In this document: positions 1 to 15,377 of the stretch, one piece after another
Layout: every line of letters starts with the position of its first letter
How positions within the stretch are numbered: position 1 is the stretch's first letter
Source: Candidatus Micrarchaeota archaeon
Lineage (GTDB): Archaea; Micrarchaeota; Micrarchaeia; Norongarragalinales; SBBD01
Direction: 5' to 3'
Assembly: GCA_038046605.1 (NCBI GenBank)
Contig: JBBSVW010000080.1
Coordinates: 1 to 16,853 of the forward strand
Length of the DNA: 16,853 nucleotides
Program-made: the position numbers and the translations under genes
The notes under the pieces: model-generated
Told to the model about the DNA's origin: nothing
The model's input: the letters and a program-made list of their open reading frames with translations, nothing else
Databases searched by the model: none

Positions 1-687
1 TGAGGATACAGCCCTTTTCATATCCACAAGCGTCCGATCCATCCCTTTCATTCTTTCCTTGAAAAGCCTTGAGGTCGCAACAGTTTCCCTCATGCCCGCC
101 CTTGAGGGGACCTTCTTTTTTTTTGCATCAACAATTGCAATCACATTCCGGATTTGCAGCCAGTGGTTTTCATCGGCGATTTGCACCGCAAACGAATCCG
201 TTCCGTCCGCCTTGGTTCCTTTTTGCCACTCCACAAAACCGCCGTAAACGGATCGCGATGCCGAGCCGGAGCCTAGCCTTGCGATAATGGATAGCTCTTT
301 TCCGGATAACTGAAGGCCCAGTGCCGCATTTATTGCAAAAGCAAGGGCGGCATAACCCGAAGCGGAAGACGCCATTCCTGCAGCTGTTGGAAAATAGTTT
401 TTGGAGGTTATTTTTGCATGCATTTTTACATCGTATTTATCGTGCAAGTAGGAGAATACTTTGTTGATACCAGCAAGTTCGGCGCCAATTATTTTTTTTC
501 CATCCAAAATGAGCGATGTTTCCCTAAGCGATTTATCAAATCCTATTTCCGTTATGGTTTTGAGCGTTTCATCCATCGTAAAACTGAGCGAGGAATTTGT
601 AGGCAGCATCAATTCCTCATCCCGCTTGCCCCAATATTTCACGACGGCAATGTTTGGGGTTGCAAGTGCGGTTGCGAAATAAGCCAT
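1..687 (-). CDS. mvaD: Diphosphomevalonate decarboxylase (MvaD/MDD) family GHMP protein, 3' end runs off the window
   Basis: Not in the ORF track. Manual minus-strand translation from ATG at 687 gives MAYFATALATPNIAVVKYWGKRDEELMLPTNSSLSFTMD...NYFPTAAGMASSASGYAALA...ARLGSGSASRSVYGGFVEW...KKKVPSRAGM, which are the hallmark MDD motifs. Confidence 0.93.
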   Translation of the reverse strand, partial: MAYFATALATPNIAVVKYWGKRDEELMLPTNSSLSFTMDETLKTITEIGFDKSLRETSLILDGKKIIGAELAGINKVFSYLHDKYDVKMHAKITSKNYFPTAAGMASSASGYAALAFAINAALGLQLSGKELSIIARLGSGSASRSVYGGFVEWQKGTKADGTDSFAVQIADENHWLQIRNVIAIVDAKKKKVPSRAGMRETVATSRLFKERMKGMDRTLVDMKRAVSS

Positions 688-750
688 AGACTAAAACCCA
701 AACAATTGGGATTTTGCGCTTTAAAACAGTTGGCTGCGAAATGAGGGCGC

Positions 751-1452
751 TCACTCATGCTCACTGCGCTCAAGTATGCCTTTTCCTCGGATTATGGTCC
801 TTCGGGCGTGCTTATCTTCCTCGTGGCTGATTCTCAAGGAAAGTGGCGCTGATTTCAATGCCTTCATGCTCGAATGCAAGTTTAGCCAGTTTGTCGAAGC
901 CTCACCGGATGATTCCGATGTAATGAACCGCTTCGAGGTGAATGGATTCCCTTGCGGGTCGGTAGCCTTGGCAACGAGCAGTATATTCTTTGGGTCCCGG
1001 CGGTCATATTCGGCCGAAATCTCAAACTCCCCGCCCTTCATTTTTAACCGGGTTCCAAGCATATGGTCAAGCTCCACAATCCCCGTGCTCGGCTGCAGGT
1101 CTGAAATTTTCCTTGCAACATAGCGCCTTGCATCCCGCCTGTCCGCATATGTTTTTTTGACTATCATAAGCGCGTCCCCCACGCTCGACATGACCGGCTT
1201 AACATTCAAATGCCTGTAATTTTCAGCAATCGCATCAACCTGGTGAAGAAAATCCCTCGCTGCGTCTTTTGCGGGGAAAGAAAAGCTATTGGAACGGATC
1301 CGGACTTTGCCCCCCCGTTCGCCGCTAAGGTCCAGAAGGACCGTTTTTCCAACAATCCTAAAGCCCATTTTAATTGCAGTATCCGAATGCAGCTGCCGTT
1401 CAATTGTATTTTTTACAACTTCTAATTGTGTTGCGTAGGGGTATTGCGCCAT
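751..1452 (-). CDS. Hypothetical soluble protein (233 aa)
   Basis: Long ORF with GGTGA Shine-Dalgarno just upstream of ATG, co-oriented between the HAD gene and mvaD. No recognisable motif. Confidence 0.75.
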   Translation of the reverse strand: MAQYPYATQLEVVKNTIERQLHSDTAIKMGFRIVGKTVLLDLSGERGGKVRIRSNSFSFPAKDAARDFLHQVDAIAENYRHLNVKPVMSSVGDALMIVKKTYADRRDARRYVARKISDLQPSTGIVELDHMLGTRLKMKGGEFEISAEYDRRDPKNILLVAKATDPQGNPFTSKRFITSESSGEASTNWLNLHSSMKALKSAPLSLRISHEEDKHARRTIIRGKGILERSEHE

Positions 1453-1488
1453 TTAACTCACCATCAGGATTTATGCCCAAATCATTTA

Positions 1489-2334
1489 TTAAGAGTGCTT
1501 TGGGGCAAGAAGGCTAGGTAGGTTAGAGGGCATTTTGGCAACAGTGCAATCAACATACCCCCGGGGCAATTTCCCATACCCCCACTTCGCAAATAACAAG
1601 TTGGCTTGCCCCTCCACCTTTTTAAGGTTGAAGGGAATGTCATCGATGAAGGAATATTCTATTTTACCGGGAGATTTGGATGCATGGGATGTGCCGGTTT
1701 GGGCGGATGCCGTTTTTCCTAATAAATCCGTTTTTTTGCCATTCACATCCCCATATTTTTCCTCAAAATGCCCCTTCAGCATGGAAATCTGCATTCCCTT
1801 GACGTGCCTATCGCCCTTGTTCACCTCATGGCCGATTATGTATTCAAAATGGCGGAGGAGCTTGAAATGAGTTAGGATCTGCTTAATTGAATGCGAATCG
1901 CGGGCGGACATGATCGCATGCTTGATTCCAAGGTTAGAAAGGGATTCTAGGGTTTTAGGTATGCCGGCATAAACTTTTAACGTCCCGAAATATTCCGCTT
2001 TGTTTTCATTCATCAGCCTATCGCGCTCCTCGTAAAAGACGATGTCCATTTTTTTAAGGAAGGGCTGGTGCTTTTTGGTCACTTTCTCCAGGTTCTCCTC
2101 ATTCATCTCCAGCCCGGTATGGTGCAGGATGTAATTTGCAAAGAAATCCGCCGCGTTCACGGATTTTGACCTGTAAACCTCGAAATCCGAAAAGGGGATG
2201 GGCGCAAATTTGGCAATCCCGGCCTCCCTTGCCAGGTAATCCTTTTCACGCTCAATTGTGCGAAGCGTCAGTATGTAGCACTCCCTTACGGTATCCACAA
2301 TCACACCGTCAAAATCCCAAATAAGCACACGCAC
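1489..2334 (-). CDS. HAD-superfamily hydrolase (phosphoglycolate-phosphatase-like)
   Basis: Motif I LIWDFDGVIVDT, motif II IMSAR, motif III K (HVKG), motif IV FIDD, and C-terminal AKWGY. GTG start. Confidence 0.9.
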   Translation of the reverse strand: MRVLIWDFDGVIVDTVRECYILTLRTIEREKDYLAREAGIAKFAPIPFSDFEVYRSKSVNAADFFANYILHHTGLEMNEENLEKVTKKHQPFLKKMDIVFYEERDRLMNENKAEYFGTLKVYAGIPKTLESLSNLGIKHAIMSARDSHSIKQILTHFKLLRHFEYIIGHEVNKGDRHVKGMQISMLKGHFEEKYGDVNGKKTDLLGKTASAQTGTSHASKSPGKIEYSFIDDIPFNLKKVEGQANLLFAKWGYGKLPRGYVDCTVAKMPSNLPSLLAPKHS

Positions 2335-2411
2335 TGGATATTACCCGCTTAAAATATGAGAAAGGTTATTAGTAGATCGGGATTTAAATTAAGGCTAGGG
2401 GGAAATATTTT

Positions 2412-3467
2412 ATGGCATTGAAAATCATCCATTCAAGTTCCCCAACCAAGCTCATAATCGCAGGGGAGCATTCTGTTGTTTACGGAGGGATTGCGCTTGT
2501 TGCCCCGCTTGACAACAGGAAGGAGTGCATATGCAAAATCAGGAAGGTCCCTAAAGGTAAGGGCGTGATTTCGATTGCGGATACTTTCGGGAATGGCAAA
2601 TATTTCCCCGATGGCAGATTCGAGGATTTTGACGGATGGTTCAAGGCAAAAGCGCGCTTAATCGAGCACATCCTAAAAAGCGAGGGGAAGGGGATTGATT
2701 CTTTGGATATTGCAATAACACTTTCAAGGAACTTCATCCCAAAAGGAACTGGCCATTCGGCTTCAACTGCTTGCTCCCTAGCGCTTTGCATTTATGGGGC
2801 GCTTGGAATTTCACCAACAGAGGGCAAGCTATTCGAGGCGTGCCAGGCTTTCGAGGAGGTGGCGCACGGCGGGCGGCCCTCGGGCATAGATGCACGGGCG
2901 GTGATTTCGGATAACCCCCTAAGGTTTCGGAAGGAATTTTTAGAGGGAGGCAAAATAGGATACGATTACGAGGGCATGAACCTTGAATTGCCAAAAGGAA
3001 GCGCATTCATAATCGCTAGCACCCTTTTGAAGGGCGAATCGCCGCAAACAACTGACGAATTGCTCTCAAAATTTGCAAAAATTAGGGGCATTTCCGGCCT
3101 TCCTGGCGAAATTGGGCAGGGACAGAGGGAATCGGTTTACGGCCCATTTGATTTGCTTGTGGAGGAAATTTCCCAAGAGCTAAGCCTTAAAGGAAAGCCG
3201 GAAAAACTAGGCGGGCTTCTTTTGAAAAACCACCAAATGCTAAAGGAATGCGGCGTTTCGTCGGATACCATCGAGGAGGCAATCCAAATTTGCATGGAAA
3301 ACGGCGCGTACGGCGCAAAGCTGACTGGCGCTGGCGGCAGGGGCGGCGCAGTTCTTGCATACTGCAAAAAAAAGGATGTGGGGAAAATCATTAAGTCGCT
3401 GAAAAGGGCGGGATTTGCCGGAATAACCGCGCAGATTTCAAGCAGGGGCGCTTGCATTGATAAATAA
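2412..3467 (+). CDS. mvk: Mevalonate kinase-like GHMP kinase
   Basis: PTKLIIAGEHSVVYG (motif I), E..AHGGRPSGID, GAKLTGAGGRGG (motif III). Close to mvaD. Confidence 0.85.
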   Translation: MALKIIHSSSPTKLIIAGEHSVVYGGIALVAPLDNRKECICKIRKVPKGKGVISIADTFGNGKYFPDGRFEDFDGWFKAKARLIEHILKSEGKGIDSLDIAITLSRNFIPKGTGHSASTACSLALCIYGALGISPTEGKLFEACQAFEEVAHGGRPSGIDARAVISDNPLRFRKEFLEGGKIGYDYEGMNLELPKGSAFIIASTLLKGESPQTTDELLSKFAKIRGISGLPGEIGQGQRESVYGPFDLLVEEISQELSLKGKPEKLGGLLLKNHQMLKECGVSSDTIEEAIQICMENGAYGAKLTGAGGRGGAVLAYCKKKDVGKIIKSLKRAGFAGITAQISSRGACIDK

Positions 3468-3547: not shown

Positions 3548-4255
3548 CTATTTTCGTTCATACTCGAGCACTTTGCGCTTGAACGTATCGGCCGATATGA
3601 ACATCAAAAAGCCGGATGCCAAAACGCCTAGTGTGCCCGCAGCTTTAAGGAATATTGGATGGGGGAACAGGCCAAGAAGGGATGGATCGGCCAGGAATGC
3701 AGATGCAACTCCAGGAAGCAAAATGAGGGCGCCGGCGGAATAGAGCATGCGCGAAACCCTAACGACCTTTGAAAAGGTGATGGCGTAGTTTGCCAGGTAA
3801 AACATCGAAAGCGATAGCATCATCATGGATGTGGAAAAGAGCATATTGTTCAAAACGTCCCCAAAATCAGGCAGCTGAAAAGAGAGGTATACGGTTAGGC
3901 CAAGATAGGCAACAATCACTGCCGCAAAGAGGCCCGAAAGTTCCTTTCGAAGCTGCAATAGGCGGATTTGGTGCGCAAGGTATAGCAGCATAAGGCATCC
4001 CATGGCGAGCAGCACGGATAAGGAAGTCACAACCGCCCTTGCAAGCGGCACATCATAGAACAGGTACTGGTAGAATAGGAATGCCGGATAGAGGATGAGA
4101 AGGGGCAAAATCAAATAGAGCATTTTCCACTCAAGCTTGCGATTTTCAAACCGCGCATCCTTGAGGATGTCACGAAGGACCATCCCTGAAATCCCAATCA
4201 ATATCCAGCCCGCAATGGAGAGCAGGTCTAGAAGGGCAAAAAGCGAATCTCTCAT
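3548..4255 (-). CDS. Integral membrane protein, ~7 TM, unknown function
   Basis: Seven hydrophobic segments. Start placed at ATG 4255 because it overlaps the minD stop as ATGA (4255-4252). The ORF track start at 4285 lies inside minD. Confidence 0.8.
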   Translation of the reverse strand: MRDSLFALLDLLSIAGWILIGISGMVLRDILKDARFENRKLEWKMLYLILPLLILYPAFLFYQYLFYDVPLARAVVTSLSVLLAMGCLMLLYLAHQIRLLQLRKELSGLFAAVIVAYLGLTVYLSFQLPDFGDVLNNMLFSTSMMMLSLSMFYLANYAITFSKVVRVSRMLYSAGALILLPGVASAFLADPSLLGLFPHPIFLKAAGTLGVLASGFLMFISADTFKRKVLEYERK

Positions 4256-5046
4256 TTGCCCACCCGAAATAGCCTGGAGAGCCATCCGATCAATTTCGAA
4301 AGCGCGCCCTTGCCAGAAGGCCTAGGCACCTCGCTTCCCGAAATCACTTCGGCGGCATACCTAAGCATCTGGCTGGCCGCGCTATTTGGCTTGTAGAGCG
4401 TCACGGGAAGCCTTGCCGCAATCGATGCGGGCACATTGTCATCCTCTGGAATATCGCATATCACCTTGACTTCCGACATGCTCTCGATTTCCTTTTCTGA
4501 AAGCTCGTAGTTGGAGTTTGTGATGCGGTTAGCAACTATACCCACAACCTCCGTTTTCACATCCTTGCAAAGCGAAACTATTTTGGAGGCGCTTGTTATG
4601 GATGGGATATCGGGCGTCGTCACGATCACGACCTTGTCACACGCCTCAAGGATTGCCTCCACATCCTCCGTGATTCCCGGGGGCGAATCAACAATCACGT
4701 AATCGTATGCATCGAGTGATTTCAAAATATTCTTGAGGTTTTTGAGATTCACATCGGGCTTGTACTTAAGGCTGGCTGGCAAAACGCGAAGGCCCGTCAT
4801 CGGGTGGATTATGAGCCCGTCGGAAATCTTGTTTTTCCCAGCCAGCACTTCCTGAATTCCAATTGGCGTGTAAGAAAGCCCAAGATGCAGCGAAATGGAA
4901 GGATTGCTAAGGTCGGCATCAACAAGCGCAACCTGCCTGCCCATTTTGGATAGGATCGAGGCGGTGTTTACCGCAACCACGCTTTTGCCAACGCCTCCCT
5001 TGCCGGAGATGATGCCAATTATTTGAGTCCCTTTTCCTTCCGCCAT
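4252..5046 (-). CDS. minD: MinD/ParA-family ATPase (archaeal MinD)
   Basis: Deviant Walker A SGKGGVGKS, VALVDADL, DYVIVDSPPG, and a C-terminal amphipathic membrane-targeting helix LSKLIGWLSRLF. Confidence 0.9.
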   Translation of the reverse strand: MAEGKGTQIIGIISGKGGVGKSVVAVNTASILSKMGRQVALVDADLSNPSISLHLGLSYTPIGIQEVLAGKNKISDGLIIHPMTGLRVLPASLKYKPDVNLKNLKNILKSLDAYDYVIVDSPPGITEDVEAILEACDKVVIVTTPDIPSITSASKIVSLCKDVKTEVVGIVANRITNSNYELSEKEIESMSEVKVICDIPEDDNVPASIAARLPVTLYKPNSAASQMLRYAAEVISGSEVPRPSGKGALSKLIGWLSRLFRVGK

Positions 5047-5257: not shown

Positions 5258-6970
5258 TTATTTCTCGATGTGGCGCTTGATCTGCTTTATGTAGCCTTCA
5301 CGCAGGGTGATGTGCGCTTCCCTCTCGCCCTTTTCCTTCTTTTTCCCGAGGTAGTGGAATAGCGACAGCAGGAATATGATGGTGATTATTATTGCCCCCA
5401 GGATGTATTGCCAGGATAAGGCAATTGCCCGCTGGACTGTCACATAGCCCGTTTGCGAAATGAGGAATTCGTCATCGAGAAGGACGCTGATTGTTGCCGA
5501 ATGCGTCCCATCGCTTCCTGGAGGCGCCCTGACCTTGAATTTGAGATCGGTTGTGCCCCTTGGGACCAAAACGCCCTCCAGGGTCAGGGGCTGCGTTTCA
5601 AAACCGGTTGGGATTTCAAGGGTTGCCTTGAAATTAACCGGCTCAAAGCCTGCATAGAAAACTTTCGCAAAAACCTCGCCCTCGCCGCCCTCCGAAATCA
5701 GGGTGCTGAAAATTTCCCGGATCACAACAATATCGGATAATTTTATTTCCTTGGGGGAAACCTCCACCTGCTTTACGCTCCAATAAACATATGGGCGATA
5801 TTCCTGGAGCAGCTTGTATATGGAATATGAGACGGAAGCGCGCTCAAGCGGGGCGAGTTCCCTAAAGAGCCATTTGACTTGCAGCGGATCGCCCGAAACT
5901 TCCGCTGGCTTATCCGCAAAAACAATGTCATCGCGGCTTGCCCTAAGCTCGGGAATGATTTCATCAATTACGCGCAAATACGCTATTGCTTTCGTGGAAG
6001 GGTTGATCACATCAATTGTGACCTTGGTTGCGCCAAGGGGCCTATCAAGCCGAATTGTCTTTAGGACAACGGGAAATTGCGCCCCCCTGGTTGCAGCCTT
6101 GATCCGAAGCGCAATGTAATCCGTCGCCACCTCGCTATCCTCACGCGCATCAATCCTGACAAGGTAATCGCCCGGCAGGGCGTTTTGCGGTATCGTGAAT
6201 GCGAGGTTTATTGCCCTATCCTCGGATGGGAGCATGATGGTTTTGATTGGCGTATAACTGACCCAGCTGCTTGGCACTCCAGTAATATTTACAGTTAAGC
6301 TCTTTGTGCCTCCTGCGGTATTTTTCACGGATAGGCTCTCAAATGCAGTTGTGCCCGCAAACATCTCCTTTAGGGGGGTGCTGCGTATGAATTGCACCTG
6401 CGTGGAAACGGGCCTGAGGCCATCAGGTATGACTGTTGGCCTAATTGTCACATTCTCATCAATAGCCGGGTTGGGATTCGAGCTCCCCCCTCCCCCGCCT
6501 GCAGGCGCGCCTGGCGTAGGTGTTGCGGTCGGTGCCGCCGTGATTTGGAATTGGCGCGAGAATATATTTGTCGAATTGATCCCATCCTCGTATAGCCCCG
6601 ATGCATTGGCATAATAGGCTCCAGCCGGATTCGAACCCGTTGCCCATGAGGATGAGAGGGTAATTGCCGAAAGCGGGGCTACGATTGATGGGGAAAAGGA
6701 AATGTTTTGGATAAATCCCCCGGTGGAATTGAAGATGGAAACATTGACCGAAACATTTGCCGAAATGGATCCCCCGTTTCCCAGCGTGACGAAAACATCC
6801 GTCGTGGCGCCGGCGTAGAGCGGATCAGATGAGACCGTAACGTCGATGATTGTGGCATTGGCAAAGTAGAGATCGACGCTGAAGAAGATCCTTGTTTGAA
6901 TGAAATCCGCCGAAACCATCAAGGATGCCATTAGCGCAAAAGCCAAAATCAGATTCCTTGGAAAAGCCAT
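5258..6970 (-). CDS. Secreted multi-Ig-like surface protein with C-terminal TM anchor; putative filament base/anchor
   Basis: Signal peptide (..LMVSA|DF), CARDB/NEW3-like repeats (VTLGNGG, SVKNTAG), Pro/Thr/Gly linker, TM YILGAIIITIIFLLSLFHYL followed by KKKEK. ATG 6970 is preceded by AGGAAG. Alternative GTG start at 6982. Confidence 0.85.
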   Translation of the reverse strand: MAFPRNLILAFALMASLMVSADFIQTRIFFSVDLYFANATIIDVTVSSDPLYAGATTDVFVTLGNGGSISANVSVNVSIFNSTGGFIQNISFSPSIVAPLSAITLSSSWATGSNPAGAYYANASGLYEDGINSTNIFSRQFQITAAPTATPTPGAPAGGGGGSSNPNPAIDENVTIRPTVIPDGLRPVSTQVQFIRSTPLKEMFAGTTAFESLSVKNTAGGTKSLTVNITGVPSSWVSYTPIKTIMLPSEDRAINLAFTIPQNALPGDYLVRIDAREDSEVATDYIALRIKAATRGAQFPVVLKTIRLDRPLGATKVTIDVINPSTKAIAYLRVIDEIIPELRASRDDIVFADKPAEVSGDPLQVKWLFRELAPLERASVSYSIYKLLQEYRPYVYWSVKQVEVSPKEIKLSDIVVIREIFSTLISEGGEGEVFAKVFYAGFEPVNFKATLEIPTGFETQPLTLEGVLVPRGTTDLKFKVRAPPGSDGTHSATISVLLDDEFLISQTGYVTVQRAIALSWQYILGAIIITIIFLLSLFHYLGKKKEKGEREAHITLREGYIKQIKRHIEK

Positions 6971-8229: not shown

Positions 8230-8841
8230 TCAGGTGACTACAGACGCATTAAGGGTTATGACCCGAACAACCGGCAAACCCACAGTTGCGCCCGTATAGT
8301 TTGCATATAAGCTCACGTTCGTGTCAAAGCAGGGCGTATTGAGGCCAACGTTTTGGGTGATGTTCATCCACCAGGTTGCATTGAGGTTCCCAGCACCGCT
8401 TGTCAGGTCGCATACGGCAATTACCGATTGCGGGCAGCCAACTGCCTTTGTCGAATTGGCGCAAAGCTTGATGGTTGCAGGAAGCGCCGTTGAAAGGTTC
8501 ATCACAACGGAAATATTCACGTTCCCGGTGTTCCTTATGCGGTATGCAGGGAAGTTCCAACCGTCCTGGCAGCTGGTCCGATCCACATTTGAGCAGGGCT
8601 GGACAAGTTCGGCGTATGCATTTGTGGTATTGAAATAATACGATTCGGTATAGTTCCCAATGAGGGCGGATTTTGATGTTGTGAAATTGGCATATGTGCT
8701 TCCAAGCGTGAAGACGGTAAATGTGGTGGAAACATCAACTGAGAATATGACGGTCGTTTGCACGAATTGGGCTGCGGCAATTACCGCCATCATGCCAATC
8801 ACCAAAAGAACGCTAAACTTCAAGGATTTCAAAATTGCCAT
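8230..8841 (-). CDS. Small secreted Cys-rich glycoprotein; putative major filament subunit (pilin-like)
   Basis: Signal peptide ending AAA|QF, no TM anchor, 6 Cys, 11 N-x-S/T sequons, and a YRIRNTGNV motif. GGAAGGTG Shine-Dalgarno precedes ATG 8841 (track start GTG 8850). Confidence 0.85.
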   Translation of the reverse strand: MAILKSLKFSVLLVIGMMAVIAAAQFVQTTVIFSVDVSTTFTVFTLGSTYANFTTSKSALIGNYTESYYFNTTNAYAELVQPCSNVDRTSCQDGWNFPAYRIRNTGNVNISVVMNLSTALPATIKLCANSTKAVGCPQSVIAVCDLTSGAGNLNATWWMNITQNVGLNTPCFDTNVSLYANYTGATVGLPVVRVITLNASVVT

Positions 8842-8883
8842 AGGTTCCACCTTCCAAAACTATAATTTAACTAATCAGGGGCG

Positions 8884-9010: not shown

Positions 9011-12000
9011 TCACGTGAGCGTCGAATTGATCGTGAGCACCCGCACAATTGGGACGCCGGGGGCAACATTTGTGAAATTGGCATAAATCGTGACATTGGC
9101 ATCAAAGCAAATGGAATCCGTCCCAAGGTTGCTTGCCGCAAGGAACCACGCGGATGCGTTGATGTTGCCCTCCCCTTTAAGATCGCAAAGCGGGATCGTA
9201 TTCGTTCCGCAGCCTGCGGGGGAGGTTGAGTTTGCACAAACCCGAACACCGCTAGCTAATACGGATGATGAAAGGTTTAGCCATATTGTCATGTTGGCAT
9301 TTGCCGTGTTCCTGACCCTGTAGGCGGGCCTGGCGGGGCCATTTTGGCAATCCGTCACACCGTCGGCATTCCCGCATGGCGCAACAAGCTGTGCGAACTG
9401 GCTTGTAGAGTTGAAGAAATATCCTTCGGTGTAATTTCCCGGCAGGGCAAGCTTTGAATTTGTGTAATTCGCGCCAGCCAAGCCTAATGTGAAAACCGTA
9501 AAGGAAGTCGAGGCGGTTGGCGTTATCACCAGATCGGAAACGCATTTCGTAAGCCCATCCGCATAGGTATCAGTTGGAGTGACACAGCAGGTCGCGTTCA
9601 TGTTTACTGCGAGCTCTTGGGCAGCTGTTGCATTTTGCCTCATCTGGTAAAGAAGGTCTATTTGCTCTGGCGAAAGAGTCGAATTGTAAATGCGGACTTC
9701 GTCGATGCTGCCGGAGAAGGGGTTTGCGTTCGCGCTGCCCTTGATTCCCACCGAGAAATTTGAAGTGGCGGTAGTTTGGGTTCTAGCGGGGGTGTCAAGC
9801 AAAGATCGGTTAACTTCGGTGCCATTGATATAGAGAATAAGGGCCGTTGTATTGTACGAGCAGGCGGCAAATACCTGCCTATTCAGCCACACCCCCGATG
9901 GCGCCCTGAAATTCACGCGCATAATTCCCGAGCTATTTTTCACCTGGCACGCTATGTGCATGTCGCCGCTCAAGCTCTGCAAATATATGTTGTAGCCATC
10001 CTGATTTATAGTGTCTTCCGTGCTTACAATATACTTGTTCGCCGCAGCGAAGGCCGTCGCATTGAACCACGTCATCCATGTGAAATTGTCCTTTACGTCC
10101 AATTGGGGCGCCGATGATATGCTGGCGGTGAACCAACCGCTCCCATCCACATATACCCCCCCAGCCCCGACCGCATTGCCCCCATATGTTGCGTTTGCAT
10201 AATTGAACCAAGCGGGCCTCCTTGCTGCGACCTGAATATATAAAGTCGAATTATGGCGCGAATAATCCTTCACAATAGGGCTATAGGTCATTTCCTTATC
10301 GAATGGCAAATACAGCAATAAAGATTCGTTGGCAAGCCCTCCGGATGCATTGAACCTGAAAGTGTAAATGTTGTAAACCGGATCGCCATCCGCATCAGCT
10401 GTGCTTTGGTTGAGGCATGTCAGGTTGGATCCGGTTTCAGGCGGGTTGGGATTGAACGTAGGCGCATTATGCGTTGGGAAGGTGTTTGGCAAAATGAGGC
10501 GAACCTGCCCGCTTGCGGTAAAATTCACTTCCCCGGTTGCATTCGGCTTATATCCATCCGCATCCCCGCTGAAATTGTAGGGGTTGTAGCAGGTTATGGA
10601 TGATTGCGGGATGCAATATGTAGGGTATGTGAACGTGCCGCTTGCATCGTACTCCGAGAGTGTCTTCCAAATCCATGTCGGAGAGCCCGTGAAATATTTT
10701 TGCTGGGGTATGGCTGCGCTTGTCGAATTGAAAATTTGGATGAACGCGTTGTTTATTCCCTCGCCGGCTGCATCGGTTATATTCACCAGCACGTACCAGC
10801 TGACATTGAAGGTGTTGACACCCGTTCCCCAGCCGTTTGCTGAATGGTTGAATGTGGAATTCACGAAAAGGTTGTTTTGCGAGTTGCTTTGGGAATTTAT
10901 GCTGTAAGATAGCGGATTTAGGTAAAGTTCCGTGAAGGAGGAATTTGTGAAATTATTCAGGCTGCTCCCGAAGAGGGAGATGGCGGACGTATTGCCGTAA
11001 AGCGTTGAATTGCCGATGCCGCCGGAAATGTTCGTTGCAGCAACGCGCTCAAAAACCGAAAAATTGGAAGATGAGATGAAAATGCCCGAGCCCTTTCCGG
11101 GAGCGGAATTGGTCCTGCCGGTGCCGTTTGCGCCGCCAAGCGAAGTGTTCATTGAAATGCCAATGAAAGTGTTGTTGTTTGAAATGAGCATGAATATGAG
11201 GGAGGAGTTTCCGCCGATGCCTCCATTGCCCCTTGTGCCAGCACCGGGACCGCCGCCATCCCCGCCCTTGCCGGCATATATTGTGCGGATCACACCGGTT
11301 TGGAAAGTATTATTGAACGATGAAGCAGCCAAATAAATGCCATACCCGTTGCCTCCTAAACCGCCATTTCCGCCGACTTGTCCACTAAACGGGAGGCCTC
11401 CATTCCCCCCCCCATATGATGAAATATTAATGAAGGAAAAATTAGTGAACAAGGAATTGGCGGAACCTTGAAGGTAAAGGAAGATCGCTTCCCCGCCATT
11501 CCCCCCATTTCCTCCAGCACCATTGCCTACTGATGAATCATCGCTCCCCAAGCCGCCTTCTCCCGAACTGATGTTTCTGACGGAAAGATTCGCAAAGCTG
11601 TTATTGAACGAATTGAAAAGGGTTAGGCCGGTTGAAAAGCCCCCGGGACCGCCAGGAGACGTTGATATGTCGCTGCCGCCTTCCCCGCCTTTGAAGGAAG
11701 TTACGCCTACAATTGTTGTGTTGATGAAAACGGAATCGTTGCTGTTGATGGAAAATAGGCCCGTCGCATTTCCCGCAGGGATTCCAGTTGTTGCCGCAGC
11801 AGTGCTTGCAGGCTTTCCTCCATTTATTCTTTCAGCCCATATGTGGGAAAAGGAATTGTTCTGGTTTTTTTCCGTGAAGATGCCAAAGCCCGTGCCGGGA
11901 ATCCCTCCGCCGGTGGTATTTGCCGCCGTCAGCCGGAACATCGACAGTTTGGTGATAAAAGTATTGGAAACATTATTCATGTAAAGGCCGGTGATGTTCC

Positions 12001-13936
12001 TCCCATTTCCCGTTGCAAAAAGCGCCGGGAAATCACTCATTAACTGCGAAGTAAGGTTGCTGTTGGAGGAATGCGTTATGGAAATCCCAAAATTCGTCTC
12101 GTTCAGGAAAGTATTGTTTATGAGAGTGAGGTTAATCGCGTTTTGCGCCGAAATCCCCCTGCTGAAATTCTTGATGATGCAATTCTTGATAACGACGTTA
12201 TTCGCATTAGTTATGTTGATCCCATAGCCGGATGTGCCGTTGCCCAAGATGAGCGCACCTCCGCAGTCCAAAATGACGTTGTTCGTTGTGATATTGAAGC
12301 ACGTGCCGGCGCTGTTGATGGTGCTCGCATTGATGGTTCCAGCCTCATATTTCCTGCTTTCCGTTATCGTATCGCAGGTGTTGGTGAAATAGGAGACGTT
12401 GTAGAAGAGGGCGTCCCATGTGACCGTTCTTGTGCCGGCTCCAGACTGGGAAAGCTGGGCGGTTAAAGTAGATTGGGATCCACCGCTGAAGAAATCCTTG
12501 CAAACCCATGTGCTTGCCATTACATTCGTGCAGGTTAGGCCCGGATCCGCGCTGGTGCCGGGGCATGAGGCGGATACTGATTTTGACGTTCCTGACCTTC
12601 CACCCAAAGCATTAATGGAACAACTGGCAACGGTGCCCGCGGTTCTCCACCACTCATAGCAGACGGTGACATTGAAAATTGCGCCGCAATTCGTAATCGT
12701 GCTATTCAGGTATTGGACTTCCCTTCCGGCAACATCGCCGCTAACCGATACCGTCTGGGTTTCCGAGTTGGCGTCATTGCAATCAACAAGGTCGTTTCCG
12801 GCGGTGCAAAGATTGCTCGGATAGGTTCCGTCGCAAATGGCGAGATAGCCAAACTCCGCATTATTGTATTCTAAACAGCTCTGGGCTCGTAGCTCCGTTT
12901 GACCCCCTGGCTCCGCAACCGGATCCGAGAGGATGATGAAATAGCCGCCGTCATCAATGCCGATTCCTTCAGCTGAAAGGGAAGTGCCAAAATCATACTT
13001 GGTTGGCGGAATGGTTCGTTGAGGGGTTTTCAGCACATATGTTTTCGAGATTGTGCCTACTTGCCCGGAAACATCCCAGCTGATCTTGCTGATTCCGGGG
13101 GAAATTTCCGTAACGATTCCGCCTGCAATATCCACAATTTGCCATTCCGTGGGAAACATATCGGATAGGATCGCATTTTGGAGGGGATCAAATATCTCAA
13201 CTGAAACCGTAATTGAAACTTCGGTAAGAGGCGGCGCCTTGTGCTGCCCGCATTTTGGGCAACCCACATTCCTTGAGAACGACTTTGAGGAAAGCGCCTT
13301 TATTTGAGGGGATGGGGCGGGAGTGGGAAGCACGGAAGGGGTGGCATTTGCATCAATGGTTGGAGTGGAGGATGAAACCGCACTTGGCTGGGCGCTTGGG
13401 GTTTCGGATGGGGAGGGTGTTGGCGCGGCCGAGGGAATTATGGAAGGGGTTGGCGAAATGGAAGGGGATGGAACGGGAGTGGCAGCTGGCGATGGGGATG
13501 CGCCAACGGAGGGGGTTGGGGAAAAAACGGGTTCGGATAGGGTGGTGAACTGGATGGCAGGACTATTCACGCAGCCGGCATAAGTGCAAGCCTCAACGTG
13601 CGCAGAATAAAGCGCAGGGGTTTCGAGGAGAGAAATGACATAGGAATGAAATAGGGCGATTTCAACCAATGGAATTGATGTTTCGGATCCACCGAAGGCT
13701 TCTTTTTTGTAAAATATTGTTGAATTCGTGAAAACGTCCGTCTCCCAGCTGAGGTTTGCGGAAGTTGAGCCCACATCAAGCGCCTGGAAATTAATTATTG
13801 TGGGAAGTGAATCCGAAAGGGGTTCTCCGGCGATGGAGGCAGGATAAAAGGCAAAAAGAAGCACGATTATGGCAACTGCTAATGCAATGAAATTGGCGAA
13901 TATGAAGTAGCCCCTAAGTTCCCGTCGAAATCCCAT
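9011..13936 (-). CDS. Giant secreted adhesin-like protein (FN3-like, P/S/T linker, Ig-like, Cys-rich, right-handed beta-helix, LamG, C-terminal pilin-like domain)
   Basis: N-terminal signal, TSANLSWETD (FN3-like), CFNITTNNVILDCGG...INITNANNVVIKNCIIKNF (NosD/CASH-type beta-helix), FSGSIDEVRIYNSTLS (LamG). The last ~166 aa are paralogous to the 8230-8841 product. No C-terminal TM. Confidence 0.9.
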   Translation of the reverse strand: MGFRRELRGYFIFANFIALAVAIIVLLFAFYPASIAGEPLSDSLPTIINFQALDVGSTSANLSWETDVFTNSTIFYKKEAFGGSETSIPLVEIALFHSYVISLLETPALYSAHVEACTYAGCVNSPAIQFTTLSEPVFSPTPSVGASPSPAATPVPSPSISPTPSIIPSAAPTPSPSETPSAQPSAVSSSTPTIDANATPSVLPTPAPSPQIKALSSKSFSRNVGCPKCGQHKAPPLTEVSITVSVEIFDPLQNAILSDMFPTEWQIVDIAGGIVTEISPGISKISWDVSGQVGTISKTYVLKTPQRTIPPTKYDFGTSLSAEGIGIDDGGYFIILSDPVAEPGGQTELRAQSCLEYNNAEFGYLAICDGTYPSNLCTAGNDLVDCNDANSETQTVSVSGDVAGREVQYLNSTITNCGAIFNVTVCYEWWRTAGTVASCSINALGGRSGTSKSVSASCPGTSADPGLTCTNVMASTWVCKDFFSGGSQSTLTAQLSQSGAGTRTVTWDALFYNVSYFTNTCDTITESRKYEAGTINASTINSAGTCFNITTNNVILDCGGALILGNGTSGYGINITNANNVVIKNCIIKNFSRGISAQNAINLTLINNTFLNETNFGISITHSSNSNLTSQLMSDFPALFATGNGRNITGLYMNNVSNTFITKLSMFRLTAANTTGGGIPGTGFGIFTEKNQNNSFSHIWAERINGGKPASTAAATTGIPAGNATGLFSINSNDSVFINTTIVGVTSFKGGEGGSDISTSPGGPGGFSTGLTLFNSFNNSFANLSVRNISSGEGGLGSDDSSVGNGAGGNGGNGGEAIFLYLQGSANSLFTNFSFINISSYGGGNGGLPFSGQVGGNGGLGGNGYGIYLAASSFNNTFQTGVIRTIYAGKGGDGGGPGAGTRGNGGIGGNSSLIFMLISNNNTFIGISMNTSLGGANGTGRTNSAPGKGSGIFISSSNFSVFERVAATNISGGIGNSTLYGNTSAISLFGSSLNNFTNSSFTELYLNPLSYSINSQSNSQNNLFVNSTFNHSANGWGTGVNTFNVSWYVLVNITDAAGEGINNAFIQIFNSTSAAIPQQKYFTGSPTWIWKTLSEYDASGTFTYPTYCIPQSSITCYNPYNFSGDADGYKPNATGEVNFTASGQVRLILPNTFPTHNAPTFNPNPPETGSNLTCLNQSTADADGDPVYNIYTFRFNASGGLANESLLLYLPFDKEMTYSPIVKDYSRHNSTLYIQVAARRPAWFNYANATYGGNAVGAGGVYVDGSGWFTASISSAPQLDVKDNFTWMTWFNATAFAAANKYIVSTEDTINQDGYNIYLQSLSGDMHIACQVKNSSGIMRVNFRAPSGVWLNRQVFAACSYNTTALILYINGTEVNRSLLDTPARTQTTATSNFSVGIKGSANANPFSGSIDEVRIYNSTLSPEQIDLLYQMRQNATAAQELAVNMNATCCVTPTDTYADGLTKCVSDLVITPTASTSFTVFTLGLAGANYTNSKLALPGNYTEGYFFNSTSQFAQLVAPCGNADGVTDCQNGPARPAYRVRNTANANMTIWLNLSSSVLASGVRVCANSTSPAGCGTNTIPLCDLKGEGNINASAWFLAASNLGTDSICFDANVTIYANFTNVAPGVPIVRVLTINSTLT
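13310..13540 (-). repeat. Low-complexity Pro/Ser/Thr linker (SPTPS/TPSP-type repeats) within the giant ORF
   Basis: SPTPSVGASPSPAATPVPSPSISPTPSIIPSAAPTPSPSETPS...; appears as a G-rich tract on the plus strand. Confidence 0.8.
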
Positions 13937-13972: not shown

Positions 13973-14087
13973 CTGTAATTAAGGAATGCAGTGAACACGG
14001 AAGGTTGTGTAAATATTCTCTTTTGTGTAAAAAGTAATAAATCTGCGTAAAAAAACCAGTTTATTCCCGATTTGCCCCGAAAACCCC

Positions 14088-15377
14088 CTAATCGCCAAAT
14101 TCTAAGAGTTCTTTTTGCCTTGCTTTTAAGAGCATCCATTTTATTTTAGGGTCGACACTCCAATATTTGTCTTTTCCATCCTTTCTTCTTAAATAAATGC
14201 AGCCATGAACTTCCAGTTGACTAAGATATGTTGAAATATTTGAACGGGCTATTTTTGTATTTCTCGATAGGTTTCTATTTGTGATTTCTTGAAATTTTAC
14301 AGCCTCCATAAGTACGTCTTTCGCTCTTTTTGGAAGACCTTGTAAATACCTTTTTTCAACGATGGTTTTCAGGGTAGCAGCCAATAAATTATGAGTTAAG
14401 GTTATTGGCCGTTCATTGGTAATTTCGGTTACGGCAGTTGATAAACTATTTAGGATGTTCCTAATGTTTCCCCCATATAGTTCATATAGTGTTTTGAGAA
14501 CTCCTTCGTTATAAGGAACCGAATAATTTAATGAATCGCTCATCCTTAATCTCCTTATTCTAATTTCCAATATTTTTTTAATATCTTCGAAAGAAAGTTC
14601 ATTTAGAAGTATCGGAGTATCTGACATTATTGAAGACATCCTGGGCATGCTTTGAAATGTTGTGTGAGTCGTTAAATTCCCAACAAAAACAAAATGAGCC
14701 TTATCGTTCTGAAAAAAGTCCCTCAAGTCCTCAAAAAGCTCCCTCATCGTTTTTTCAGGCAGCCTCTCCAAATTATTATAGTGCAGTATAATATCCTTCC
14801 CCGTTTTTTTCACAATCTCGTCTACTATATCGTTGAAAAAATCAATTAGCCCCAAACTTGAAGGTGCATCGTTTGTTCTTATGCTTTTATTGATATCCGC
14901 CCCAAAACCTGCAATGTTTACTGCGGTAATATTTCGTTCGACTGAACTTAGTTCCACAAAGTTGGCAAGTTTATCGAAAGATTCTTTTTGCAATATCTTA
15001 TCTTGATTCAATTTTAAAGTTGAATAAATTGCATGTAGCGTATTGGTAACAAAAGAAGCCGCATTCCAGTCCGACAGAACGCCAACTTCTTTAAAAGGGG
15101 TGAAATGCCCCCTTTCCATTGCGCGAATACGGGCTACATTTACAAAACTAGTTTTCCCAACACCAACATCCCCGCACACTAGGATTCCGTTCCCTCCACT
15201 TGAACCGAATATTTTTCTTAACCTTGCAAGTTCCTCTTCCCTGCCGCAAAAACTTTCAATAGGTAACACTCCGCCCCGAACCAATAAGGGGGAGGTTGAA
15301 AATGGGTTTGTTTTCAAACCATAAATTTCCCATAAGTTCTCGTTGTAATTTTCGTTCCGTTTTTCGTTAAAATCCAT
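14088..15377 (-). CDS. AAA-type P-loop ATPase with C-terminal winged HTH
   Basis: N-terminal YGLKTNPF, F.GREEE, Walker A GDVGVGKTS, GGNIR motif, and a C-terminal HTH/wing (ITNRNLSRNTKIARSNISTYLSQLEVHGCI...KYWSV). Confidence 0.88.
   Translation of the reverse strand: MDFNEKRNENYNENLWEIYGLKTNPFSTSPLLVRGGVLPIESFCGREEELARLRKIFGSSGGNGILVCGDVGVGKTSFVNVARIRAMERGHFTPFKEVGVLSDWNAASFVTNTLHAIYSTLKLNQDKILQKESFDKLANFVELSSVERNITAVNIAGFGADINKSIRTNDAPSSLGLIDFFNDIVDEIVKKTGKDIILHYNNLERLPEKTMRELFEDLRDFFQNDKAHFVFVGNLTTHTTFQSMPRMSSIMSDTPILLNELSFEDIKKILEIRIRRLRMSDSLNYSVPYNEGVLKTLYELYGGNIRNILNSLSTAVTEITNERPITLTHNLLAATLKTIVEKRYLQGLPKRAKDVLMEAVKFQEITNRNLSRNTKIARSNISTYLSQLEVHGCIYLRRKDGKDKYWSVDPKIKWMLLKARQKELLEFGD

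Follow-up and report, generated by a model that had tools for sequence, protein, structure and literature searches.

How does a very large surface protein that has no membrane segment near its C-terminus stay attached to the cell that makes it? The question is raised by a 16,853-nucleotide stretch of DNA (hereafter the window; positions 1 to 16,853 of contig JBBSVW010000080.1, assembly GCA_038046605.1) from a Candidatus Micrarchaeota archaeon, in which a giant protein of 1641 residues (P0001) is encoded beside a small protein (P0002) that resembles the giant's own C-terminal end. Open reading frames (ORFs) and their translations give the gene order giant P0001 (9011..13936), P0002 (8230..8850), P0003 (7182..8117; 311 residues), P0004 (5258..6982; 574 residues) and a MinD-like ATPase (4252..5046), all on the minus strand, as are the features located below. 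The first four genes probably encode a surface fibre or short tether of this DPANN archaeon, the parts of which are joined by donor-strand complementation. P0002 would be the major pilin, a beta-sandwich preceded by a 13-residue N-terminal strand, which both gives a strand and accepts one. The giant, in which adhesin-type cargo (beta-helix, LamG) is followed by a strand-less copy of the pilin domain, would only accept and would sit at the distal end as the tip adhesin. P0004 would plug the groove of the last pilin with a strand of its own and anchor the chain in the cell membrane through a helix, and P0003, which is N-terminally membrane-tethered and has an immunoglobulin (Ig)-like domain, is a candidate chaperone or assembly factor.

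The relationship between the giant and its small neighbour can be read directly from their translations. BLASTP aligns residues 1475-1640 of the giant with residues 40-204 of the small protein at 84/167 identities (50%), with 72% positives and 3 gaps (E 2e-52), and all 6 Cys of the small protein are aligned to Cys in the giant. A preliminary description of this DNA had claimed that the last ~166 residues of the giant match the small protein, with about half of the positions identical and all 6 Cys kept, and the alignment bears this out; its placement of the domain at 9011..9511 was exact, corresponding to residues 1476-1641 (9014..9511) plus the stop codon. This C-terminal pilin-like domain is the proposed acceptor without a strand of its own, and apart from it and the small protein the assembly (1.64 Mb, 106 contigs, 90.7% complete) has no further copy of the domain. 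In an alignment of 15 small proteins and 7 giant C-termini (alignment A2), homology begins at S-x-S-F-T-V, and the sequence of the giants upstream of that point is unrelated. In the giant of the window this position is taken by a Cys-containing linker (residues 1427-1475; 9512..9658), found in place of the donor strand of the pilin, and LamG-type giants in general have a conserved Cys-bearing linker before the C-terminal domain. The earlier claim that homology starts exactly where the donor strand ends was correct in part: the BLAST alignment does start there and the strand motif is absent from the giant, but HMMER runs a few residues further, extending homology to residue 34 of the small protein and to profile position 10.

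The proposed donor strand of the pilin comprises residues 28-40 (QFVQTTVIFSVDV; 8731..8769) and lies directly after the predicted signal peptide. Its assignment draws on an alignment of stand-alone relatives (alignment A1), an AlphaFold2 (AF2) model and the complex model described below. The 17 relatives in A1 share a signal peptide with a small-x-small end, followed by a conserved mature N-terminus, E-F-V-Q-T-T-V-x-F-x-V-P, in which T5 and F9 of the mature pilin are invariant and V7 and V11 nearly so. This conservation of alternate residues (T5/V7/F9/V11) fits a beta-strand with one buried face. AF2, supplied with the A1 alignment, predicts a beta-sandwich with a mean predicted local distance difference test (pLDDT) of 69.7 and a predicted template modelling score of 0.73; the first 14 residues have pLDDT < 50. 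The ORF of P0002 is listed from a GTG at 8850, giving 206 residues; an identical database protein, P0006, has 203 residues, which fits an ATG start at 8841, and the true length of P0002 is probably 203 residues from that ATG.

The joint between the two proteins was modelled by pairing residues 1455-1641 of the giant, together with 16 aligned relatives, with the mature pilin and alignment A1. The complex score was 0.80 (runs 0.76, 0.80 and 0.83), and the best of 3 controls scored 0.00; the mark used for this score is reached by 116/157 solved complexes and by 2/215 mismatched pairs, a calibration that is rough here since own alignments were supplied. At least 92% of contacts are shared between runs, and the partner pLDDT is at least 80. 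On the pilin side the modelled interface consists of residues 1-14 and 83-84, while the giant contributes residues 22-29, 38-59 and 170-184 of the fragment (1476-1483, 1492-1513 and 1624-1638 of the giant) and few others; these stretches are the first strand of the domain, a stretch with the family-invariant T and F, and the C-terminal strand. Residues 2-8 of the pilin strand are placed antiparallel to the last strand of the giant (fragment 177-183), and the other side of the strand adjoins fragment 48-53, which holds the invariant T and F. The pairs with the lowest predicted error (giant fragment:pilin) are 182:3, 181:4, 179:5-6 and 177:7-8, together with 48:4, 51:5-6 and 53:8. A strand antiparallel to the C-terminal strand is the geometry of donor-strand exchange in chaperone-usher pili. 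Sequence searches of solved structures in the PDB gave no relative below E 0.1 for P0002 alone or for the A2 profile; with no solved structure related in sequence to either family, it is unlikely that the predictor scored well by recalling a similar complex. The model supports binding of the pilin to the giant and, within it, insertion of the pilin strand into the giant's domain.

A profile built from A2 and searched against 1.84 billion representative proteins matched 361 proteins at E <= 1e-3, 220 of them at E <= 1e-10. It was this profile search that exposed the fusions, since P0002 as a single sequence had found 2 longer homologues only. The 158 members analysed (the best 150 of the 361 profile matches plus members from earlier homologue searches) comprise 89 proteins of up to 235 residues and 69 longer ones. 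The domain stops no more than 7 residues short of the C-terminus in 58/69 of the long proteins, and no more than 18 short of it in 64/69. A strand motif, defined as an aromatic residue at profile position 22, T/S at 25 and an aromatic at 29, occurs in 57 of the 79 short proteins whose N-terminus is intact and in one of the 69 long proteins (P0116). Taken together, the complex model and this distribution of the motif support donor-strand complementation as the nature of the joint between giant and pilin.

Of the 69 long proteins, 29 were scanned with Pfam; families could be named in 11 of these and in none of the other 18. Beta_helix was found in 5, Laminin_G_3 in 3, BNR_2 in 2 and FG-GAP in 2, with NosD, Disaggr_repeat, CBM96, fn3 and Pepdidase_M14_N each seen once. 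A strand-less C-terminal joining domain behind varied cargo is therefore a general feature of the family, and the variety of cargo ahead of the C-terminal domain in these 29 proteins is the outcome of the survey for swappable tips that the preliminary description had suggested. A FastTree phylogeny of 149 domains contains 18 changes between long and short labels, at least 10 of them forced by starred branches, compared with 49 when labels were shuffled; the tree is one of a short domain, labelled by length alone, and some of its 'short' rows are fragments of long proteins. In the same tree the domain of the giant of genome G006 is sister to that genome's own pilin (support 97).

An accepting tip and a pilin do not in themselves reach the membrane, and P0004 has the features expected of a terminating base anchor, in that it has the strand, lacks the pilin domain and ends in the membrane. 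It consists of a signal peptide, a donor-strand-like N-terminus, Ig-like domains, a C-terminal membrane helix and a conserved cytoplasmic tail. The N-terminal strand (residues 26-38, DFIQTRIFFSVDL; 6869..6907) carries the motif of the pilin's donor strand; after the signal peptide it reads D-F-I-Q-T-R-I-F-F-S-V-D-L, and eight homologues begin alike. When the pilin family (A2) and the P0004 family (alignment A5) were compared with hhalign, this strand alone was aligned, over 21 columns, with E 2.4e-4 and a probability of 43.5%. Among 4115 ORFs of at least 80 residues in the genome, the core strand motif occurs in the pilin and P0004 only, in each case right after the signal peptide; the motif was drawn from these two families, and the count is a measure of its specificity and not an independent discovery. 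Behind the strand are Ig-like domains of the CARDB/NPCBM_assoc type, with a Pfam match to NPCBM_assoc at residues 217-280. Hydropathy marks segments at 10-29 and 519-547, the latter being the C-terminal transmembrane helix (5342..5428), which is followed by a basic cytoplasmic tail (5258-5341), L-R-x-G-Y-I-x-Q-I-K-x-H-I, conserved in 9 homologues. P0004 is therefore likely to be the terminating base anchor. The preliminary description had held that an acceptor domain explains how the giant is retained; the acceptor-only domain is supported by the family pattern and the model, but a membrane anchor is needed as well, and P0004 had been overlooked.

The order of pilin, P0003-like and P0004-like genes is kept in 9/9 related loci fetched (G002, G003, G004, G005, G006, G007, G008 and G024, plus the window). 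In 13 genomes (G000, G002, G003, G005, G007, G008, G046, G124, G137, G151, G230, G245 and G259) a long ORF that ends in a pilin-like domain lies on the same strand just upstream of the pilin gene, and in G004 and G006 the long domain-ending ORF sits on a different contig from the pilin. One genome of the set, G230, has a 3752-residue open frame ending in the domain (C103:5648-6142) beside a 203-residue pilin. At the G024 locus no giant lies upstream of the cassette; proteins of 418 and 1586 residues, both exported, follow the MinD-like gene (L022 15241-20001). Across the phylum the domain was found in 20 of 301 sampled genomes at E <= 1e-5 (14 of 176 high-quality genomes) and is concentrated in a few genome families (f1 5/6, f17 4/7, f11 4/15); within the same sample it was not found among the searched genomes of the four largest families. 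Of 10 clusters looked up, one has a taxon name, Candidatus Woesearchaeota, borne by a long relative.

P0003 is conserved in all nine related loci and belongs to a family of 29 'hypothetical' proteins, the named ones being mostly from Micrarchaeota and one from a 'Thermococci archaeon'. Hydropathy indicates an N-terminal membrane helix, and the AF2 model (pLDDT 80.1) has a helical region and a C-terminal Ig-like beta-sandwich (~150-311). Scans of Pfam and NCBIfam assigned no family, and PDB sequence searches with the protein and with its A4 profile returned nothing below E 0.1. Foldseek gave 97 PDB matches at E <= 1e-3, headed by a PapD-like/ASH domain (6fvi, 2.8e-5) and including WxLIP (9i1y, 1e-4) and the chaperone FaeE (1.4e-4), as well as N-domains of GH123, Calx and cohesins. 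The exhaustive structure aligner VIA placed WxLIP (Z 6.9), EcpB (6.5), YadV (6.3), CupB2 (5.9) and SafB (5.8) among many unrelated Ig domains. Comparison with a protein atlas yielded no usable lead (feature scores up to 0.81, structure template modelling scores up to 0.39), and the family has no invariant Cys, His or Ser that would point to an enzyme. A chaperone role for P0003 is a candidate suggested by the model of its fold, and is offered as a lead and not as a finding.

The fold of the pilin is informative in general terms only. P0002 matched no family in Pfam or NCBIfam scans. In VIA searches with the AF2 model the best match was a Csu pilin (7zl4, Z 6.7), with the TasA fibre (8aur, 6.4), the Pyrobaculum bundling pilus (7ueg, 6.2) and cannulae (9h8b, 5.9) also matched; the Tafi pilin (9p0a_C) aligned over 118 residues at Z 5.4 with a root-mean-square deviation of 4.0, and the top 50 also contain CupE, CS17, CS20 and CFA/I subunits and unrelated Ig-like domains. 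These comparisons show only that the predicted fold is of the general kind seen in donor-strand pilins.

Several points weigh against the four-part fibre. Foldseek, run with the pilin model against the PDB, returned nothing at E <= 1e-3, known donor-strand pilins being matched weakly, and VIA scores under 8 are common among unrelated sandwiches, a range that includes the best pilin Z of 6.7. The fold matches of P0003 are likewise generic (Z up to 7.5), and it has one Ig-like domain where chaperones of the PapD type have two. The score of the complex is the model's own confidence, and the alignment supplied for the giant's domain included pilin paralogues. Within the family, 7/69 long proteins have aromatics at both positions 22 and 29, and P0116 has the full motif. 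HMMER alignments of the giants begin at profile positions 8-35, reaching into the strand region, and the conserved C-V-S-D-hydrophobic linker of LamG-type giants could conceivably pair in cis. The long N-terminal hydrophobic segment of the giant (residues 7-38) might stay uncleaved as an anchor. Finally, the strands of pilin and P0004 are barely more alike within genomes (5.1/13 identities) than between them (4.0/13), a difference too weak for their co-variation to be used as evidence. Long proteins with a donor-strand-like segment before the C-terminal domain include P0116, P0045, P0124, P0137 and P0139; such strand-keeping fusions may be self-complemented or internal subunits, and not tips.

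Strand insertion could also operate on a smaller scale, with the giant linked to P0004 by a single copy, or a handful, of the small protein as a short display stalk and no pilus being formed. This arrangement is considered unlikely. The complex model covered the joint between giant and pilin only, and the several Ig-like domains of P0004 with their Pro/Gly-rich linker could serve as a stalk. Nevertheless, the small protein has both strand and groove, as a self-polymerising subunit needs, one genome (G008) has 2 tandem pilin genes, and stand-alone pilins exceed long fusions by 89 to 69 among the family representatives analysed. These observations weigh against a stalk alone; P0002 is a proposed pilin that would polymerise.

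Alternatively, the giant could be held by an uncleaved N-terminal segment, with a C-terminal domain that is self-sufficient or complemented in cis and merely shares ancestry with the small protein. In favour of this are the length of the segment at residues 7-38, unusual for a signal peptide, a linker of strand-like appearance, C-V-S-D-L-V-I-T, that LamG-type giants conserve, and the entry of HMMER alignments into the strand region, noted above. The preliminary description had named the filling of the groove by the linker as the outcome that would count against its proposal. The complex model differs from that outcome: it puts the strand of the pilin (residues 1-14), and not the linker, on the last strand of the giant, with controls at zero, and the linker (fragment 1-21, giant 1455-1475) is not among the listed interface residues, although residues that are not listed are uncertain and not absent. 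Moreover, what precedes the C-terminal domain in the giants of G006 and G002 is the final strand of another domain, of a type found mid-protein in the giant of the window. Many long relatives begin with ordinary short signal peptides, so that other means of retention are needed for them. Nor would retention by the N-terminus account for three further features: the domain lies at the C-terminus in 58 of 69 long proteins, 68 of the 69 have lost the motif, and a position next to the pilin gene is conserved. On this evidence N-terminal retention is regarded as improbable; in the proposed fibre the giant's hydrophobic segment would be cleaved and the C-terminal domain would be the point of attachment. 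A further reading, in which the shared domain binds the cell surface or glycans as a module for attachment to S-layer or envelope, occurs free or at the end of large proteins and takes part in no strand exchange, is very improbable: such sandwich folds are common and the top Foldseek rows of the pilin include carbohydrate-binding modules (CBM32, E 0.017), but the proposal leaves unexplained the confinement of the motif to the stand-alone form, the same motif on membrane-anchored P0004 and the strand as modelled interface.

Among known systems the closest analogues of a fibre built by strand donation in this way appear to be the Pam pili of bacteria of the candidate phyla radiation (CPR) and the Elr/WxL pili of Bacillota, both from 2026 preprints. 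Searches of Pfam, NCBIfam and the PDB gave no sequence membership in any known pilus family, Pam being compared by description only. Pam pili have a tip (PamT), pilins (PamA/B/E), membrane-anchored chaperones (PamC/D) and an anchor (PamR) (PMC13278184). The likeness lies in a monoderm, ultrasmall, host-dependent organism with an acceptor-only tip, donor-strand-exchange pilins, membrane-tethered PapD-like helpers and no usher; in addition, PamR, the terminator, is like P0004 in its extra N-terminal strand, its domains of Ig/FnIII type and the membrane helix at its C-terminus (PMC13278184). Pam pili belong to Bacteria, whereas the present cassette is archaeal. PamA/B have two domains and a linker strand, in contrast to the single-domain pilin with an N-terminal strand; PamT is a single truncated Ig domain, in contrast to a multi-domain tip of 1641 residues; and PamC/D have a C-terminal helix and two domains, in contrast to the N-terminal tether and one Ig-like domain of P0003 (PMC13278184).

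The Elr/WxL pilus of Enterococcus faecalis has a tip (ElrA), a pilin (ElrD), a membrane chaperone (ElrE) and a base (ElrB), and the system is described as confined to Bacillota (10.64898/2026.10.17.759780). ElrA joins a variable payload to a C-terminal, acceptor-only copy of the pilin domain, with payloads that are modular across genomes; the pilin has an N-terminal donor strand, ElrB is a donor without an acceptor domain, and the chaperone is membrane-anchored (10.64898/2026.10.17.759780). The base of the Elr pilus is joined to the cell wall by sortase, whereas a membrane helix would take this part here (10.64898/2026.10.17.759780). WxLIP resembles P0003 at the level of fold only, with the scores given above, and no Pfam match to WxL, DUF916 or DUF3324 was found at E <= 0.1 in P0001-P0004.

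The comparison with FimH drawn in the preliminary description holds as an analogy of architecture only, and the acceptor-only C-terminal domain it implied is supported along three independent lines, by the family-wide pattern, by the complex model (0.80 against 0.00) and by the signal peptides of long relatives. Chaperone-usher systems (FimH/FimA/FimC/FimD, Pap) likewise have a two-part tip adhesin whose pilin domain lacks an N-terminal extension of its own, and the polarity would be the same, with a tip that accepts and strands that point away from the cell. The acceptor-only character of Fim/Pap-type tips has its counterpart in the modelled complex and in the absence of the motif from the giant and 68/69 long relatives. 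There is no outer membrane and no usher here: Pfam scans of 13 window proteins gave no match to the Usher family, and PapD was matched in no cassette protein. In fold the pilin is only weakly similar to Csu, CupE, CFA/I and Fim subunits (Z 5-6.7).

Within Archaea, the haloarchaeal Tat-fimbriae (tafi) consist of the tip TafC, TafE, TafA and the anchor TafF, and are compared here together with the DUF1102/Mth60 class (PMC11821415, PMC12337348). They are also strand-donation fibres encoded in one cluster, with a LamG-bearing tip and a membrane-anchored terminal protein (PMC11821415). Their polarity is opposite, since the tafi tip donates and the anchor accepts, whereas here the tip would accept and P0004 donate; and Tat signals are used there, whereas the present cassette has no twin-arginine signal and no dedicated signal peptidase gene (PMC11821415). 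No Pfam match to DUF1102 was found at E <= 0.1, and the sole match to the NCBIfam models TafA/TafC/TafE was to the LamG part of TafC. The pilin has no Pfam or PDB sequence match to the TasA superfamily, and its fold is weakly alike, as seen in the scores for 8aur and 7ueg. Sulfolobus threads (PMC9715654), Pyrobaculum bundling pili and Pyrodictium cannulae are likewise Sec-secreted, heavily glycosylated beta-sandwiches joined by an N-terminal strand. They differ in being described as chaperone-free or as having machinery that is unknown, and their descriptions include no giant tip adhesin that only accepts; for threads the proposed cap, Saci_0405, only donates (PMC9715654). The Foldseek match of the pilin model to the thread structure 7pnb has E 0.16.

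The proposed tip can be divided into an N-terminal signal or anchor, an FN3-like region, a Pro/Ser/Thr linker, Cys-rich and beta-helix-like regions, a LamG domain and the C-terminal pilin-like domain. Laminin_G_3 alone was matched by Pfam (PF13385, E 9e-18), marking the LamG (concanavalin-A-like lectin) domain at residues 1275-1426 (9659..10114), and the other domain names come from reading of the sequence and from Beta_helix matches in relatives. The match of this LamG domain to the LamG part of NCBIfam TafC is weak (23.6 bits, cut-off 410). Residues 1-38 (13823..13936) form a basic stretch and the hydrophobic segment, a signal peptide or signal anchor recognised by hydropathy and a shared motif; as claimed earlier, the giant has no C-terminal transmembrane segment, the stretch at 7-38 being its sole hydrophobic one. 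The N-terminal motif R-G-Y-F-x-x-A-N is common to the giants of G002, G003, G006, G007 and the window. More broadly, Micrarchaeota giants (L013, L014, L017 and L020) have an unusual motif, R/K-G-Y-F-L-x-A-N-L, that opens a long hydrophobic segment, and long relatives elsewhere have ordinary short signal peptides; the motif may be a specialised export or retention signal. N-x-S/T sequons number 72 in the giant (4.4 per 100 residues) and 11 in the pilin (5.3 per 100), against a background of 0.95, and densities above background fit exposed glycoproteins. P0003 has 0 in its 311 residues.

The closest homologues of the window proteins are named Candidatus Micrarchaeota or Candidatus Norongarragalinales archaeon by their sources, and from these names the organism is judged to be a single-membrane archaeon. 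The sequencing runs that carry this DNA are groundwater or aquifer metagenomes, with no RNA run among those listed. Directly downstream of P0004, the archaeal MinD-like ATPase matches NCBIfam minD_arch at E 2e-54 (184 bits, under the cut-off of 201.75) and Pfam ParA/AAA_31/CbiA. In the window and in 7/9 related loci, spanning three genome families, a MinD-like gene comes after the P0004 homologue, and the ATPase may be linked to the cassette, possibly through a positioning or assembly role with the P0004 tail. After it comes a 245-residue membrane protein without a family (3548-4285, minus strand), which is found likewise in G002, G003, G004 and G005, of the same genus. Mevalonate-pathway genes (diphosphomevalonate decarboxylase-like, mevalonate kinase and HAD hydrolase; 1-3467) flank the cassette in the window and in G002-G005. 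On the other side, P0005 (14088-15377, minus strand) is an AAA/STAND-like ATPase with a C-terminal winged-helix region. The region around it (14001-15000) has 35% guanine plus cytosine compared with ~50% elsewhere; related loci have no P0005 counterpart, and there a gene for a Zn-dependent dehydrogenase directly adjoins the giant. P0005 is probably a recent insertion.

A full-text literature search for 'DPANN' with 'donor strand' found no such system described. It is possible, and suggested here only tentatively, that the cassette corresponds, in Archaea, to the donor-strand pili that CPR bacteria and Bacillota assemble with chaperones and without an usher, and that it is the first archaeal strand-exchange fibre of the chaperone type. 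The pilin domain, the P0003-type chaperone and the P0004-type anchor would then be three new, unannotated families of a DPANN attachment organ, one in which giant tips are swapped repeatedly while the joining domain tracks its cognate pilin, and the MinD-like ATPase could place the fibre through the anchor tail. If P0003 is indeed a chaperone, strand-exchange pili with membrane-tethered chaperones would be found in Bacteria and Archaea alike wherever cells have one membrane, which would bear on the origin of chaperone-usher systems. Many different large proteins end in the joining domain, their cargo being lectin, beta-helix, sialidase-like, integrin-like or carbohydrate-binding, and because it stands behind such varied cargo it could be used to search uncultured archaea for adhesins. 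Little is known of how DPANN archaea hold on to surfaces or host cells, and the cassette represents a concrete, testable machine in which the features of each part fit its proposed place: a sticky tip that would only accept, a shaft that would give and accept, and a membrane base that would give a strand.

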